From a virus, in the IMG/VR virus record IMGVR_UViG_3300027714_000004, positions 32,001 through 96,000 of that record: a DNA stretch of 64,000 nucleotides; one strand, written 5' to 3'. Shown piece by piece: positions 30,798 through 64,000 of this stretch. How positions within the stretch are numbered: position 1 is the stretch's first letter; the number at the start of each line of letters is the position of its first letter. The position numbers and the translations under genes are program-made. The notes beneath the pieces were generated by a model. It was not told where the DNA came from and made no database searches. It worked only from the letters and a program-made list of their open reading frames with translations.

Positions 30798-32795
30798 ATG
30801 ACAGTTGAAGTGAAATATGAACGGGACGAATTACTCACAGATTATGCTGTGGGTATGCTAAAAGACTTCTATATGGTCGACGGAGAGACCTCTCCTCAAG
30901 ATGCATATGCCAGAGCAGCGACTGCTTGGTCTATGTATAAAGGTCAGTTGGATGAAGTGTTGGCACGAAGACTGTATGAGTATGTTTCCAAGAAATGGTT
31001 CATGTTTTCCTCCCCCGTACTGTCAAATGCTCCGGTAGGTGATAAAAAATCTAAAGGATTGCCGATCTCATGTTTCCTTACATACGTACCTGATACGTTA
31101 GAAGGTTTAATCGAGCACTCTTCTGAGTTGCGTTGGTTGTCCGTGATGGGTGGTGGTGTCGGTGGCCACTGGGGTGACGTGCGTACGGTGTCTGACATTG
31201 CGCCTGGCCCGATTCCTTTCCTACACACAGTAGACGCAGACATGATTGCGTATCGTCAAGGGAAGACCCGTAAGGGGTCATATGCGGCATACCTAGATGT
31301 GCATCATCCAGACATTATAGAATTCCTAAATATACGTATCCCTACTGGGGACGTACAAAGGAAAGCATTGAACATTCACAATGCTATAAATATTACTGAT
31401 GAGTTTATGACCGCAGTAATAGGTAACACAGATTTTAACTTGCGTGACCCCAAAGATGGTTCAGTAAAAGAAGCTATCGATGCACGTAAGTTATGGGAAA
31501 GAATCCTTGAGGTTCGATTCCGTACGGGTGAACCGTACTTAAACTTTATTGACGCTGCGAATCGCGATCTCCCCCAACCTCTAAAGGATAAGGGACTAAA
31601 GATTCACGGGTCAAACTTATGTAATGAAATTCACTTACCGACATCAGAAGATAGAACTGCGGTATGTTGTCTGTCTTCCCTCAACTTAGAGTACTATGAG
31701 GATTGGAAGGACACCAACATTGTACGAGATATCGTCCGTATGTTGGATAACGTTCTTGAGTACTTTATTGAGAACGCACCGGACAGCATCTCTAGAGCAA
31801 GATACTCTGCGGAACGTGAAAGATCAATTGGATTGGGTGCAATGGGATTCCATTCACTCTTACAGAAACACTCTGTTGCTTGGGAGTCTGATAAAGCTCG
31901 GGAAATTAATAAAGTAGTTTTCGAGAATATTAAGAAACAAGCAGTAGAAGAGTCTTGGCTCCTTGCGAAAGAGCGAGGTGAATACTCGGACGGTTTAGGT
32001 TCAGGGGTGCGTAATTCGCATCTACTTGCAATAGCACCTAACGCATCGTCGGGAGTCATTTTATCAACGTCACCATCGATCGAACCACTGAAGGCTTGTG
32101 CATACACGCACAGAACTCGTGCTGGTTCTTTCCTAGTGAAGAACGTCTATCTGACCAAACTCCTACGGGATAAGGGTCATGATAACGCGTCCACGTGGAC
32201 TAGTATTATCACCAAGAAGGGGTCGGTGCAACACCTACCCTTCCTGAACGAAGGTGAGAAGGCAATATACAAGACCGCGGCGGAACTAGACCAGAATTGG
32301 GTGGTGACTCATGCAGCCGACAGACAACCATTTATCTGTCAGGGGCAGTCCGTTAATCTATTCTTCCCATCGGGTACACCTAAGAGTTATGTTAATAAGG
32401 TGCACTTCAACGCATGGAAGAAAGGATTGAAGGGATTGTACTATCTACGTACAGAAGCAAGTTCCCGTGCAGAGACCGTGTCAGACAAAGTAGAACGTGT
32501 TGCGTTACAAGAAGACAACCGTACTATAGTCTATGGAAAGGACAACTGTCCGTTCTGTAAAATGGCAGTAGAGGAACTTACGATACGCGGGATAGTATTC
32601 GATTACATTGATCTTGCGGAGATTAAGAAAACTGCCGCAGAGGTTACGGGTCGATCTGTAACGTCAGTTCCTCAGATCTACTATGAGGGAAGATATATCG
32701 GAGGTTACGAAGATCTCATGATACATCTCAAGGGTGGTGCCGACTATGAGTTGGTGCAAGGGAACGACGATGAGTGCAGGGCCTGTGAAGGGTAA
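30798..32795 (+). CDS. nrdA: Ribonucleotide reductase class Ia alpha subunit with glutaredoxin domain
   Basis: ISCF, SNLCNEI, IAPNASS, QGQSVNLF, LYY. Grx CPFC..VPQI..IGG. Terminal CRAC. Confidence 0.95.
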   Translation: MTVEVKYERDELLTDYAVGMLKDFYMVDGETSPQDAYARAATAWSMYKGQLDEVLARRLYEYVSKKWFMFSSPVLSNAPVGDKKSKGLPISCFLTYVPDTLEGLIEHSSELRWLSVMGGGVGGHWGDVRTVSDIAPGPIPFLHTVDADMIAYRQGKTRKGSYAAYLDVHHPDIIEFLNIRIPTGDVQRKALNIHNAINITDEFMTAVIGNTDFNLRDPKDGSVKEAIDARKLWERILEVRFRTGEPYLNFIDAANRDLPQPLKDKGLKIHGSNLCNEIHLPTSEDRTAVCCLSSLNLEYYEDWKDTNIVRDIVRMLDNVLEYFIENAPDSISRARYSAERERSIGLGAMGFHSLLQKHSVAWESDKAREINKVVFENIKKQAVEESWLLAKERGEYSDGLGSGVRNSHLLAIAPNASSGVILSTSPSIEPLKACAYTHRTRAGSFLVKNVYLTKLLRDKGHDNASTWTSIITKKGSVQHLPFLNEGEKAIYKTAAELDQNWVVTHAADRQPFICQGQSVNLFFPSGTPKSYVNKVHFNAWKKGLKGLYYLRTEASSRAETVSDKVERVALQEDNRTIVYGKDNCPFCKMAVEELTIRGIVFDYIDLAEIKKTAAEVTGRSVTSVPQIYYEGRYIGGYEDLMIHLKGGADYELVQGNDDECRACEG

Positions 32796-60032: not shown

Positions 60033-60977
60033 ATGTCTTTTGCAAACCTCAAGTCCAAGTCTATGGACATCTCAAAGCTAGTCACCGCTGCAAACGTAGC
60101 AACCGGACAAGCAAGTAACACAAACAAATATCAAGACGATCGCAAGTGGAAGCCTACTGTTGATGAACAGGGTAATGGCTACGCAGTTATTCGTTTTCTT
60201 CCTGCTACTGAAGGTCAAGATCTTCCGTGGGTACGCTACTGGGATCACGCCTTTAAAGGTATTACCGGACAGTGGTACATCGAACGTTCATTGACTACAC
60301 TAGGTCAGAACGATCCATTAGGTGAGTTGAACTCTCGTCTATGGAACTCAGGTATCGAAGAAGACAAGGAAACTGCACGTAAGCAGAAGCGCCGTCTGCA
60401 CTACGTTACTAACATCCAAGTTATTAACGACCCCGCAAACCCTGCCAACAACGGTAAGGTAATGATCTACGAGTTCGGTAAGAAGATCTTTGATAAGATC
60501 ATGGATCAGATGCAACCAGAATTTCCTGGCGAGACTCCGGTCAATCCTTTCGACTTCTGGACAGGTGCTGATTTCGAACTGAAGATTCGTAAAGTTGCGG
60601 GTTACAGAAACTATGATAAGTCGGACTTCAAGTCGCCTTCTGCATTCCTAGGATCAGATGAGACTCAGTTGGAATCAGTGTATAACTCACTGTATGACTT
60701 AAACGAGTTCATTATCCCCAACTACCCGAACGCGTTTGACTCGAACTGGTTCAAGTCTTATGACGATCTCAAGTCTAAGTTGGAAACTGTACTAGGTCTT
60801 GCGACTGGTGCTGGGTCAACACTGAAGAACGAAGCATTAGCACAGACTGCTGAAGCTGCTCCGATTCGATCAGCAGTTGAACCTACTGTTGTCGCTGCTG
60901 CTCCTGCTGCGGTTGCTGCTGTCGCAGAAGAAGATGACACACTGTCTTACTTCGCGCAGATGGCTGCCGAAGATTAA
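60033..60977 (+). CDS. 32: ssDNA-binding protein gp32
   Basis: DDRKWKP, GYAVIRFLP, FGKKIFDKI, NYDKS, acidic tail. Confidence 0.96.
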   Translation: MSFANLKSKSMDISKLVTAANVATGQASNTNKYQDDRKWKPTVDEQGNGYAVIRFLPATEGQDLPWVRYWDHAFKGITGQWYIERSLTTLGQNDPLGELNSRLWNSGIEEDKETARKQKRRLHYVTNIQVINDPANPANNGKVMIYEFGKKIFDKIMDQMQPEFPGETPVNPFDFWTGADFELKIRKVAGYRNYDKSDFKSPSAFLGSDETQLESVYNSLYDLNEFIIPNYPNAFDSNWFKSYDDLKSKLETVLGLATGAGSTLKNEALAQTAEAAPIRSAVEPTVVAAAPAAVAAVAEEDDTLSYFAQMAAED

Positions 60978-61002
60978 TAATCCCAGTGTAGTGTGAAACC
61001 GG

Positions 61003-61030
61003 AAAGGGACTCGAAAGAGTCCCTTTTTTT
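61003..61030 (+). terminator. Intrinsic terminator (likely bidirectional)
   Basis: AAAGGGACTC-GAAA-GAGTCCCTTT with T-tract. Confidence 0.9.
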
Positions 61031-62531
61031 ATACTGATCTTCCTTGGTCGAAGGGATCCGCAGAATTATTCGAAGCTACGAGTACAGGGGCAGGAGCACT
61101 AGCAGCAGGTGCCGCAGATGTTCTAGAACTATTATCCATCATGACGATGTTAGCAGTCGCTTTAACTACATCGTTCTCCTTGACTGCACTATTTAACTGA
61201 TTTGATCCAGTTGGTTTGTTGGTTGCTCCCGCCGCAGAAATATCGTCCTTACCATTGAGAAGGTAATCCAACCCCTTTCCAGACTCACCCCCCGAACCGA
61301 TCAATATCGCTAAGTTCGCAAAGGAGAATACTTCCTTAGCTCTTTTAAATACTCTAGCCATCATTTCGGTCATATTGGTGAAGACTTCTTTCATAAACTC
61401 TACTGGCGAATCTATGAAGTTTGCAATACCTTCTTTAATAGACTCGTACGCTGCACCGAAACTGAATGAGTCTAAGAACGCCGAGAATTTCTTGAATCCG
61501 AGTTTTTCGGATACCCAAGAGATTGCGTCCTTAACCATATCCGCAAGGTCGACAACAAAGAATTTTAATAGGTCGTCTATGATATTTTTGAGCGTACCGA
61601 AACCAAATTCACCGGACATTAAATCACTAACAATATTCTTACCTACGATGAATGCAGCTGCTAGAGGGGCGAATATTTTTGATACTAGTTTAAAAACTGA
61701 CCCAAAGGTTTTCGCGAAAGAACCAAATTTAGTTCCTAGTTTCTGAAAGAACTCCATCACCTTTGCGATAGGGCCAGTAGTTTTACTTCCTCCTGCAAAG
61801 GAAAGGGTTTTCCCCAGAACTTCGAAGGGTTTCATGAATGACTTAAATCTCTCGCTCACCTTCGCTATAACTTGACCTAACTTACTTTCGGTGAACATGA
61901 CCTTTAACTTAGTTCCCCATCCAGATATCATTTTACCGACAAAGGTGAAACCCTCTCTTACTTTACCGAGTCCAGTCATGAATACTTGTGTTATCGCCTT
62001 TCCGATTTCGATAGGGAATTTTACGATCTTGGATATGAATTTAGGTGTCAGGAACTTGATAATCGCACCTAACGGTTTGAATAGTCCTGATATAGATCCT
62101 GCAAGAGTACCCATTGCAACTGCCGCAAGAGATGCGAACAGTCCTAATCTAGTTAGCATCTCCGATGGTTTGTCGTCTTTCTTCGGGTCGTCCTCTTCCT
62201 TCGAGGCACCTATATTTTGAATAGCTTCCAACAGGGAACTTTGCCAGATCTTAGTTTCGTTTCTACTTTCCAGATCATCTCCGGATGTATTAGATCCACC
62301 TTTAGATAGGTTTCTACGGATGTAACCAAGATGACCAAACATCTGACTCAGAAGATTCTCGCTACGACCCACGCGCATAACGACATTTTCCATGACACCT
62401 TTCAGTGCCTCAGAATTGCTGGTCTGTACCTTAGTCTGGTTTTCTTGCCCGTCAATAAGCACTTTACTTTGTACGGACTGTCCATCGCGGACAGATTCTA
62501 GTTTACCAGATACTTCTTTGAGAGTTGCCAT
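61029..62531 (-). CDS. Tape-measure-like / baseplate hub (gp29-like) protein
   Basis: Long amphipathic helical repeats with periodic F/K/G, follows gp26/gp51. Confidence 0.6.
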   Translation of the reverse strand: MATLKEVSGKLESVRDGQSVQSKVLIDGQENQTKVQTSNSEALKGVMENVVMRVGRSENLLSQMFGHLGYIRRNLSKGGSNTSGDDLESRNETKIWQSSLLEAIQNIGASKEEDDPKKDDKPSEMLTRLGLFASLAAVAMGTLAGSISGLFKPLGAIIKFLTPKFISKIVKFPIEIGKAITQVFMTGLGKVREGFTFVGKMISGWGTKLKVMFTESKLGQVIAKVSERFKSFMKPFEVLGKTLSFAGGSKTTGPIAKVMEFFQKLGTKFGSFAKTFGSVFKLVSKIFAPLAAAFIVGKNIVSDLMSGEFGFGTLKNIIDDLLKFFVVDLADMVKDAISWVSEKLGFKKFSAFLDSFSFGAAYESIKEGIANFIDSPVEFMKEVFTNMTEMMARVFKRAKEVFSFANLAILIGSGGESGKGLDYLLNGKDDISAAGATNKPTGSNQLNSAVKENDVVKATANIVMMDNSSRTSAAPAASAPAPVLVASNNSADPFDQGRSV

Positions 62532-62534
62532 ATC

Positions 62535-62723
62535 TTACCCTTGTTGTTTTGCTCTTTCGTTTTTCTCTTTGATGTCTTCTATCAACATCGTCAAGTAAAT
62601 CTCTCTCTCCCACGGAATCATTGTTTCGACCTCTTCCAACGAGTAACTAAAATTATTAAGAAGCTGGAAGTTAACCTGATAGTAATTCATCAGGTTATCG
62701 TGAGAGAGATTAACTAAAAAAAA
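62535..62723 (-). CDS. 51: Baseplate hub assembly protein gp51-like, probably expressed by frameshift from gp26
   Basis: LSHDNLMNYYQVNFQL..YSLEEVETMIPWEREIY. The only ATG (62690) lacks an RBS. Confidence 0.75.
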   Translation of the reverse strand, partial: FFLVNLSHDNLMNYYQVNFQLLNNFSYSLEEVETMIPWEREIYLTMLIEDIKEKNERAKQQG

Positions 62724-63421
62724 TCGTCCATCCCCTTCAATGTTCTTTCGTTCTTGTGGGAGCAAGACGTACATTCAAATTCTATTGTTTGTGTTACTGA
62801 AGGTACCGAACTAATGAAGTTGGTGATCTTCTCGAACTGTTCTGAAGACATCGAATCTATGAATCCCATGACCTCTTCCTTGGACTCATCTTTCATAGAA
62901 ATTCTTTCTTCTTCGGTTAAGACTGAGTCGATACATGCTATGGAGAGCTGTAACATACTTTCCATTTCTGACTTTGAATCTAACAGGGTATCATTCGACA
63001 AGAAATCTTCGTATGATGGGTACTTCATCTTGATAGATATTTTATCGTTGAGTGCAATTACGCTATCTACAACTTCCCCTACTACTTCGACCTTGTCTAT
63101 ATCAACTTTGACTTCGTTCTCGGTTTCACATTCAGAGCATTTAGCATTTATATCTGCTGACTCACCGACAGATTTTGCACGTATCTTAGTGAATAGGTAA
63201 TCTACATCGAAAGTTGCCAAAGTTCCTTTAATAGGTTCTTCTATACAAGCTTCAATAGTATTCACCACAGAACGCAACATGTCCTTACGGTCTTGTGTTT
63301 CGTATGCGATCATCAGTGCTTTCTGTTCTTTAACTAGGAAGGGACGAAAGGTCGTCTGCTGTCCAGTTGATGGTACGGTAACAGTATAACTTGGGGTATC
63401 ATTCAGTTTTGGTAATGCCAT
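62714..63421 (-). CDS. 26: Baseplate hub assembly protein gp26-like
   Basis: MALPKL..FRPFLVKEQK..IRAKSVGE, two CxxC, ends GMDDFF. Confidence 0.9.
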   Translation of the reverse strand: MALPKLNDTPSYTVTVPSTGQQTTFRPFLVKEQKALMIAYETQDRKDMLRSVVNTIEACIEEPIKGTLATFDVDYLFTKIRAKSVGESADINAKCSECETENEVKVDIDKVEVVGEVVDSVIALNDKISIKMKYPSYEDFLSNDTLLDSKSEMESMLQLSIACIDSVLTEEERISMKDESKEEVMGFIDSMSSEQFEKITNFISSVPSVTQTIEFECTSCSHKNERTLKGMDDFF

Positions 63422-63443: not shown

Positions 63444-64000
63444 TTAAATATATTTTCCGAGATTGAGACTTATCTTGGGTTTTATCAGTTCTCTTTCATC
63501 CTTCACTACTTTCCATTTGGTGTAGGACAATTGTACCGAGAATTCTACTAGTTGGTCTGCTTCGTTAGACAAAGAGATCGCGTTCAATGATGTTGGGAAC
63601 GCATCTTCTAGTTCTACTGAGTATATAGAACTTCCTAATATATCGAAATCTATACTCAGTGGGCCGAGATCGAATCCGATCCTCATCTGAGGTTTGACAA
63701 GTTGATGTAAGGTGACCTTCTTCTGGTACTGATCCTTATATGCAATATTGCCTCTCTCTTCGTCAATCATCAACGATGTCCACTCGTCGAAGTACTTCTT
63801 CACGCCATAGTCGTTTAACATAATGAAGGTAAGGTTAACGTCCTCCATTAGAAACCCGTTAACGACCTTTTCATTGTACACTCCGACATTCCAATCAAGG
63901 GTTGTCAGTTGCTTGCCGGGCAGGTCAATAGACTTACATAGGACGTTAATGTCACGCCCACCCATGTCTTCTGTCAATGACGGTAAACCAATAGCAAACT
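63444..64000 (-). CDS. Tail-tube-fold baseplate protein (gp54-like), start outside window
   Basis: LCKSIDLPGK..YFDEW..LEDAFPTSL..FSVQLSY. Confidence 0.75.
   Translation of the reverse strand, partial: FAIGLPSLTEDMGGRDINVLCKSIDLPGKQLTTLDWNVGVYNEKVVNGFLMEDVNLTFIMLNDYGVKKYFDEWTSLMIDEERGNIAYKDQYQKKVTLHQLVKPQMRIGFDLGPLSIDFDILGSSIYSVELEDAFPTSLNAISLSNEADQLVEFSVQLSYTKWKVVKDERELIKPKISLNLGKYI

Follow-up and report, generated by a model that had tools for sequence, protein, structure and literature searches.

A putative programmed -1 frameshift joins gp26 to a gp51-like extension in T4-like phages

The gp26-like gene of an uncultured T4-like phage probably (at a rough probability of 0.8) encodes a tail (hub/tape-measure) assembly chaperone and is read in two ways owing to a programmed -1 frameshift, as judged by comparative sequence analysis. 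A conserved slippery heptamer in a conserved register, the lack of a conserved start codon for the -1 frame, colinearity with T4 gp51 and a chaperone-like fold all argue for the proposal of the first-pass annotation that gp26 and gp26-51 are the equivalents of lambda G and GT. The comparisons thus support the assignment of the locus to the lambda G/GT type, in a phage group where the shift was thought to be missing.

The window, that is the whole stretch of DNA that was analyzed, comprises 64,000 nucleotides (positions 32,001 to 96,000) of the IMG/VR virus record IMGVR_UViG_3300027714_000004, which is 145,426 bp long and estimated to be 88% complete. The nearest named relative is phage C48C1 (Kyanoviridae; gp26 identity 56%), and the source is therefore assigned to an uncultured marine T4-like phage. 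The genes of interest are all encoded on the minus strand, in the order tube-like gene, gp26, extension and a gene for a helical 500-amino-acid protein, and the features of the locus are as follows:

63444-63998, minus strand: tail-tube-like gene (gp54-type tube initiator; Pfam PF23849 Phage_TTP_2, E 1e-4; phrog_45 'tail tube', E 1e-24)
62714-63421, minus strand: gp26-like gene encoding the short product of 235 amino acids (Pfam PF12322 T4_baseplate, E 3.7e-58; phrog_150, E 3e-60)
62732-62737, minus strand: Shine-Dalgarno (SD)-like AAGGGG, candidate frameshift stimulator, 8 nt 5' of the heptamer (its AAGG core 10 nt 5')
62723-62717, minus strand: slippery heptamer T_TTT_TTT in the gp26 frame, inside the T8 run 62716-62723
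62714-62716, minus strand: gp26 stop codon TAG, directly abutting the heptamer
62717-62538, minus strand: -1 frame extension ('gp51' domain) of 60 codons, followed by TAA at 62535-62537 (phrog_634, E 1e-22)
62688-62690, minus strand: internal ATG at extension codon 10, the sole candidate for separate initiation 3' of the slip site
62672-62697, minus strand: 10-bp hairpin that begins 19 nt past the heptamer, probably incidental
61029-62531, minus strand: gene of 500 amino acids, probable tape measure gene, starting 3 nt past the extension stop

The 3' end of the gp26-like open reading frame reads AAG GGG ATG GAC GAT TTT TTT TAG on the minus strand, and the T run comes to eight (62716-62723) because the TAG stop codon begins with T. 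Starting at base 62717, the -1 frame encodes LVNLSHDNLMNYYQ...PWEREIY... over 60 codons up to the TAA at 62535-62537, giving a predicted long product of 235 + 60 = 295 amino acids. The first-pass annotation had placed the end of gp26 and the T-TTT-TTT heptamer at 62723-62717 correctly to the base, and the other two elements it described are likewise present: the open -1 frame of 60 codons that encodes the gp51-like ...PWEREIY sequence (phrog_634, E 1e-22) and the AAGGGG at 62737-62732, 8 nt 5' of the heptamer. The match of gp26 to PF12322 scores 197 bits against a cut-off of 24.5 and covers model positions 2-218 of 219. The gp26-like gene is the single PF12322 gene in the 145,426-bp record, which leaves the extension without any other N-terminal partner. 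The window has no excess of T7 runs (13 seen vs 19 expected) and the signal therefore lies in the position and the conservation of the run at the end of gp26. The tail-tube-like gene runs off the end of the window and encodes 206 amino acids in the full record (the full open reading frame is seen in locus L089); its positional homologues are annotated as gp54 in phages phiM9, PX29 and nt-1.

A total of 66 distinct junctions between gp26 and the extension were obtained from 15 GenBank phages and 75 IMG/VR loci, the latter gathered with a single-protein query. The sample includes the Kyanoviridae, the Straboviridae (Vibrio and Aeromonas phages), the Pootjesviridae, phages of Stenotrophomonas, Desulfovibrio and the Methylophilales, and IMG/VR contigs. 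An in-frame T_TTT_TTN heptamer is located 0-2 codons ahead of the gp26 stop codon in 65 of the 66 junctions, and the -1 frame past the heptamer is open for 58-67 codons in every locus that is not cut short by a contig end. The alignment of junctions across T4-like genomes, which the first-pass annotation had suggested as a check, thus recovers both the slippery heptamer and the -1 register. The gp26 proteins of the diverged lineages in the sample are only 22-37% identical to that of the window, a level at which neutral sites are saturated. The probability that the heptamer was retained by chance is below 1e-6 by a rough estimate that assumes about 0.3 per lineage and a dozen deep lineages.

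The conservation extends to synonymous positions of the slip site. The codon ahead of the Phe pair ends in T in all of 61 junctions (AGT in 42, GAT in 14, AAT in 2, TCT in 2 and GCT in 1); the background frequency of T at third positions is 38%. All 61 junctions likewise use TTT for the first Phe, where the background frequency is 82%. The second Phe is replaced by Leu in three junctions, where the codon is TTG or TTA and the T run is preserved. Because the Phe pair is also conserved as a protein motif and the genomes have a high AT content, some of the T's would be expected regardless. A stop codon (TAG, TGA or TAA) adjoins T_TTT_TTT in all sampled members of the window's clade and likewise in the more distant Methylophilales phage Melnitz, while one sense codon separates the heptamer from the stop codon in most other lineages and two do so in Rhizobium phage LG08. 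The T8 form of the site (T_TTT_TTT plus stop codon) is the local difference in the window. Within a large marine clade the last codon of the 0 frame is variable (GGA, GAA, GTA, GAC, GCA and others, encoding Gly, Glu, Val, Asp and Ala) whereas the -1 codon that overlaps it is constantly CGN (Arg), which indicates that purifying selection on the -1 frame sets in at the first base past T_TTT_TT, that is, 5' of the gp26 stop codon.

The 61 residues encoded in the -1 frame give a hit to PHROG 634, 'baseplate hub assembly catalyst' (E 1e-22), and a further hit to positions 232-282 of phrog_150, 'baseplate hub', which is the family of gp26 itself. Matches to the extension over at least 80% of its length identify a split type of the gene in 537 GenBank phage records, mainly from cyanophages and further from Vibrio, rhizobial, Pelagibacter and other phages; a full-length gp51 type occurs in 1375 GenBank records, chiefly from phages of enterobacteria and Acinetobacter and from some Aeromonas phages. 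The extension alone aligns with residues 200-247 of T4 gp51 (E 3e-7) and the conceptual 295-residue fusion aligns with residues 64-247 (E 1e-12), free of gaps at the junction (...DDFF/LVNLSHD... opposite ...VDVF KLLVNPD..., the slash marking the junction). The gp51 domain part is joined to the gp26 part colinearly, as it is in T4 gp51, and the two would form a single polypeptide only if the predicted -1 shift occurs. The short form of the window is homologous to T4 gp26 (E 4e-9). In T4 gp51 (249 amino acids), residues 1-201 match PF12322 (E 4e-52) and the match to phrog_150 runs from end to end, and T4 gp26 (208 amino acids) matches the same two models without their last approximately 50 positions. 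This coverage, together with the colinear alignment, identifies T4 gp51 as the long form encoded by one gene and T4 gp26 as the short form. On these alignments, T4 gp51 is a full-length gp26 paralogue with an in-frame extension, and the 'gp51' of the window phage is only the last approximately 50 residues of T4 gp51. Genes 26 and 51 of T4 are transcribed divergently, which makes a fusion impossible in T4, and the equivalent site of T4 gene 26 reads TTC TTT, which is not slippery. T4 thus carries two separate genes and no slippery run, whereas the window carries one gene with an extension in the -1 frame and lacks a second copy of PF12322. In T4 and its close relatives the pair may have been resolved into gene 26, a short form that lost the heptamer, and gene 51, a long form in one frame.

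The structure of gp26 was modeled with AlphaFold2 from a 24-sequence alignment (pLDDT 87, pTM 0.81) and compared with 48,161 chains. The top three matches are 3fgx (Z 8.1), 2ob9 (HK97 gp13, Z 7.1) and 3klu (YqbN, Z 7.0), scores of 7-8 being the level at which the tool warns of a merely shared arrangement and not proof on their own. They cover gp26 residues 1-90, with 82-84 residues aligned at an rmsd of 3.7-4.2 Å and 11-16% identity, and all three structures are named tail assembly chaperones (PMC9603447). The fourth match is an uncharacterised protein of a PICI-like element (Z 5.2) and the next is unrelated (Z 4). A Foldseek search of the model against the PDB returned nothing at E 0.001 (2ob9 was found at E 1.1 with a probability of 0.75) and a sequence search of solved structures found no relative of gp26. 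Overall, the model supports a tail-assembly-chaperone-like fold for the N-terminal domain of gp26 (about residues 1-90). The likeness to HK97 gp13 (2OB9), Bacillus subtilis YqbN (3KLU) and Geobacillus stearothermophilus Rbstp2171 (3FGX) is limited to the N-terminal third of gp26, and the remainder displays only weak zinc-ribbon-like structural matches. Four Cys residues in two pairs in the C-terminal part are kept in the window's clade and are absent from the marine cyanophage clade.

The gene downstream of the extension had been called tape-measure-like in the first-pass annotation. Its position, its predicted helices and its neighbors in the ESM Atlas agree with that assignment, but a sequence similarity to T4 gp29 does not exist at a detectable level (BLASTP E 0.39; hhalign probability 0.3). 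The 500-amino-acid protein is predicted to consist of helices and coil with no strands (from an AlphaFold2 model with a pLDDT of 32, of which the secondary structure alone is usable), and in the ESM Atlas it lies closest to clusters named 'Tail length tape measure protein' (0.96), with a cluster of PF25671 T4_Tape_measure at 0.94. A Pfam search at E 0.1 gave no match for the protein, PF25671 (gp29) included, and its sequence matched no tape measure family. Based on position, helical prediction and language-model neighbors, the 500-amino-acid protein is probably the tape measure protein.

The database annotation follows a different scheme, in which the extension is a separate small 'gp51' protein of about 51-61 residues, made from ATG 62690 or by termination-reinitiation and never fused to gp26. 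This scheme is very unlikely for the locus in the window. Nine conserved codons precede ATG 62690, no SD-like sequence is located upstream of it, and the equivalent codon is ACG in phage C48C1, as a result of which the 'gp51' of C48C1 is annotated in the database as only 35 codons. Independent initiation at 62690, an outcome that would have spoken against the first-pass annotation by its own account, is thus not borne out. The first-pass annotation was right that the gp51-like sequence begins ahead of an ATG without a ribosome binding site but wrong that this ATG is the only one: a second -1-frame ATG, from which that frame is open, is found at 62774, inside gp26, where it results from the Glu-Cys codons GAA TGT, and a scripted scan identified no SD-like sequence upstream of it. 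All other 60 junctions lack a start codon 5' of the slip site. No ATG, GTG or TTG is present between the upstream -1-frame stop codon and extension codon 12 in 27 out of 61 junctions, and only one candidate start among the 61 is associated with an SD-like sequence (TTG in locus L014). A profile of the extension retrieved 1928 representative proteins with predicted N-termini that are spread across some 20 positions, and such scatter is the expected output of gene callers when a real start is absent. A separate gp51 would moreover leave unexplained why the synonymous sites of the heptamer do not vary, why an Arg codon of the -1 frame starts 5' of the gp26 stop codon and why the domain is fused in frame within T4 gp51. 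What the scheme does account for is an ATG that overlaps the gp26 stop codon in some lineages, together with the heptamer in phages phiM9, Atu_ph04, nt-1 and YB07 and without it in Pseudomonas phage Cygsa01, and these lineages suggest that a free extension may be functional in some phages, which is the chief biological caveat to the frameshift reading.

Two further explanations accept that the two parts belong to one protein and differ in how the frames are joined. Bacterial RNA polymerase slips on long A/T runs, which is used by some IS elements, by Thermus dnaX and by type III secretion genes of Shigella, and the addition of an extra U on the eight consecutive T of the window and its clade (62716-62723) would place both parts in one frame in a subset of the mRNA and yield an identical long protein. 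However, most members of the family contain only T6 (AGT TTT TTC and similar), a length at which polymerase slippage would be of little use, so that it cannot be the family-wide mechanism. The T6 lineages keep the in-frame X_XXY_YYZ register and the SD-like element, both of which are relevant to ribosomes and not to polymerase, and any stop codon placed after T7 necessarily makes a T8 run. Transcriptional slippage is therefore an unlikely replacement for ribosomal frameshifting, although slippage of the polymerase on T8 could add to the ribosomal route in the window's phage. The other explanation, that the frame break is a homopolymer error of assembly or sequencing or marks a decaying gene and that the true gene is one 295-residue open reading frame, has a close to negligible probability. 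Homopolymers are error-prone and a few metagenome-predicted proteins do carry both parts in one frame (P0209, P0127 and P0145), but the same break in the same run recurs in 65 distinct junctions, from isolates as well as metagenomes, and the identical 235-residue protein is encoded on 21 contigs. The nearest 120 protein clusters are almost all 235-236 residues long (with one entry of 222 residues), showing that the relatives of gp26 terminate at the same place. The sequencing error that the first-pass annotation had listed as a possible refutation thus finds no confirmation. A word-based search for longer extension-containing proteins near the window found no fused form; the few in-frame metagenome fusions, which came from a profile search, may be homopolymer errors and were excluded from the evidence.

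Under the preferred reading, a programmed -1 frameshift, most ribosomes would halt at UAG and release the 235-residue short form. A minority would slip back by one base on U_UUU_UUU (62723-62717), decode UUA as Leu and add 60 codons, resulting in a long form of 295 residues that ends with the 'gp51' domain. The slippage would most likely involve tRNA-Phe on U_UUU_UUU, shifting by -1 in tandem or in the P site. The U_UUU_UUN motif is the slippery motif of HIV-1 and is known to slip in Escherichia coli. The slip is probably aided by the upstream SD-like AAGGGG and by the stop codon after the run. At the equivalent Glu-Gly or Lys-Gly codons of the 61 junctions, Glu is encoded by GAG in 42 cases and by GAA in 4, compared with 25% GAG elsewhere in the same genes, a G-rich codon choice that is suggestive of a stimulator among related sequences that are not independent of each other. 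The stop codon is a second candidate stimulator and is adjacent to the run in the window's clade and usually one codon off elsewhere. The 97-nt stretch that contains the downstream hairpin has a folding energy of -21.9 kcal/mol (z -2.5). The hairpin was rejected as a stimulator: most members of the clade lack it, and consensus folding of three clades gave energies of only -0.9 to -1.9 kcal/mol and no conserved downstream RNA structure. The analysis shows the anatomy of the sequence, its conservation, its colinearity with T4 gp51 and the chaperone-like fold, while the occurrence and the rate of the shift, its stimulators and the binding partners of gp26 and gp26-51 are inferred.

Frameshifting in tail assembly chaperone genes is among the most conserved recoding events in viruses (PMC5009743), and the G-T frameshift is described as conserved in long-tailed phages 'except T4' (Atkins 2016, PMC5009743). 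The -1 frameshift that produces lambda gpG and gpGT has been reported in a series of studies (Levin 1993; Xu, Hendrix & Duda 2004, 2013, 2014, as summarised in PMC5009743), and gpGT is absent from the virion (PMC5009743). T4 gp51 is needed for hub assembly and is absent from the particle, and gp26 and gp51 are both given as hub assembly chaperones (Leiman 2010, PMC3004832). In the GenBank record MN709128 (Acinetobacter phage Berthold), gp26 and gp51 are both labeled 'tape measure protein assembly chaperone', which indicates that the chaperone assignment is already held by at least one annotating group. The statement of the first-pass annotation that the arrangement had not been described therefore applies to the frameshift and not to the chaperone role: no report of a gp26-gp51 frameshift was found in the full-text literature open to search (which excludes subscription-only papers), and none of the 14 frameshift-type GenBank records examined is annotated with a joined CDS.

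The locus resembles lambda G/GT in that the (probable) tape measure gene is closely preceded by two overlapping frames, the first of these carries an in-frame X_XXY_YYZ heptamer at its 3' end, the short product and the predicted long product have a common N-terminus, and the long form of T4 is required for assembly but is not part of the particle. It differs in several respects. There is no detectable sequence similarity between the lambda proteins and gp26 or the extension, lambda gpG is approximately half the size of gp26, and gpG has nothing that corresponds to the C-terminal two thirds of gp26. The heptamer is U_UUU_UUN in gp26 and G_GGA_AAG in lambda, with the stop codon directly after the run in the window's clade, and the T4-type chaperones, unlike lambda G/GT, have been described for hub/baseplate assembly. 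By analogy with lambda, the gp26 part that both forms share would bind the tape measure protein encoded by the next gene, the extension would recruit the tube or hub protein, and neither form would be retained in the virion. A second comparison is offered by dnaX of E. coli, where a -1 frameshift occurs on A_AAA_AAG with an upstream SD-like stimulator. The gp26 site is similar in its putative SD-like element (AAGG/GAGG core) about 10 nt 5' of a homopolymeric heptamer, but no conserved downstream hairpin was found at it. The shifted frame of dnaX ends almost immediately and the shift thus leads to a shorter product, whereas the shift in gp26 would lead to a longer one.

Taken across the family, it is likely that a G/GT frameshift is ancestral in the T4 superfamily, that cyanophages and pelagiphage-like, Vibrio, Aeromonas, rhizobial and other T4-like phages slip on U_UUU_UUN to make gp26 and gp26-51, and that T4 gp51 is the GT form made into a gene of its own after a duplication. 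If this is true, the short:long ratio in the window's clade (U8 with an abutting stop codon) might also depend on the speed of termination or on polymerase slippage. Hundreds of deposited T4-like genomes (537 GenBank records) would contain a mis-annotated or missing gene, for which the right annotation would be a joined CDS with ribosomal slippage. The exception of T4 to the tail-chaperone frameshift would vanish, gp26 and gp51 would gain a defined role, with a function for the long-puzzling T4 gp51, and the locus would provide a clear natural example of a frameshift pair that was resolved into two paralogous genes.

The gp26-like gene of the window (62714-63421, minus strand, 235 amino acids), a putative tail assembly chaperone gene, encodes one Cys pair near residues 95-98 and another near residues 217-220, an arrangement that suggests a zinc ribbon built from two distant hairpins. 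In the gp26 alignment both pairs are present in the clade of the window and in several other lineages but are missing from the marine cyanophage clade, and of the pair cysteines the first alone is close to invariant. T4 gp26 has kept the second pair but its first pair is reduced to one Cys.

The 3' end of the T4 gene also differs at the position of the proposed frameshift.

L012:3803-3830, T4 gene 26 3' end, protein end ...EFFELL

The T4 site reads TTC TTT and is not slippery, and the gene 26 stop codon overlaps the gene 25 ATG (TAATG). The residues that follow FF in T4 gp26 resemble those with which the gp51 extension begins (KLL), and the T4 gp26 end looks like a truncated remnant from the duplication. 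A single junction among those sampled, that of Pseudomonas phage Cygsa01, lacks the slippery heptamer and reads AGC ATT TTC ACC TAA TG. Here the extension starts with an ATG that overlaps the gp26 stop codon, the conserved upstream Gly is lost as well, and coupled initiation may take the place of frameshifting in this lineage. Three predicted metagenome proteins (P0209, P0127, and P0145) carry the extension in frame with the gp26 C-terminus (e.g., ...EFF-RISMAHEDL...) and come either from genes that are naturally fused or from assemblies with homopolymer-length errors.

In the deposited genome of Acinetobacter phage Berthold (MN709128), gp26 and gp51 are each labelled "tape measure protein assembly chaperone"; no source for this label was found in the literature searched.

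The 500-amino-acid gene that follows the extension in the window (61029-62531, minus strand), probably the tape measure gene, converges with a gp32-like gene.

60978-61030, stretch where the gp32-like gene (plus strand) and the 500-amino-acid gene (minus strand) converge

The two genes end at 60977 and 61029, respectively, leaving a gap of 51 nt, and a T7 run lies at 61024-61030. The stretch with this run is possibly a two-way terminator.

A large-protein gene occupies the tape measure position in Synechococcus phage S-PM2.

L005:1679-3181, S-PM2 large-protein gene after gp26/"gp51"

Its product carries an ADP-ribosyltransferase domain at the N-terminus (PF01129, E = 4e-6; PF03496, E = 2e-5), and therefore T4-like phages differ in the kind of protein that is encoded 3' of the chaperone gene.
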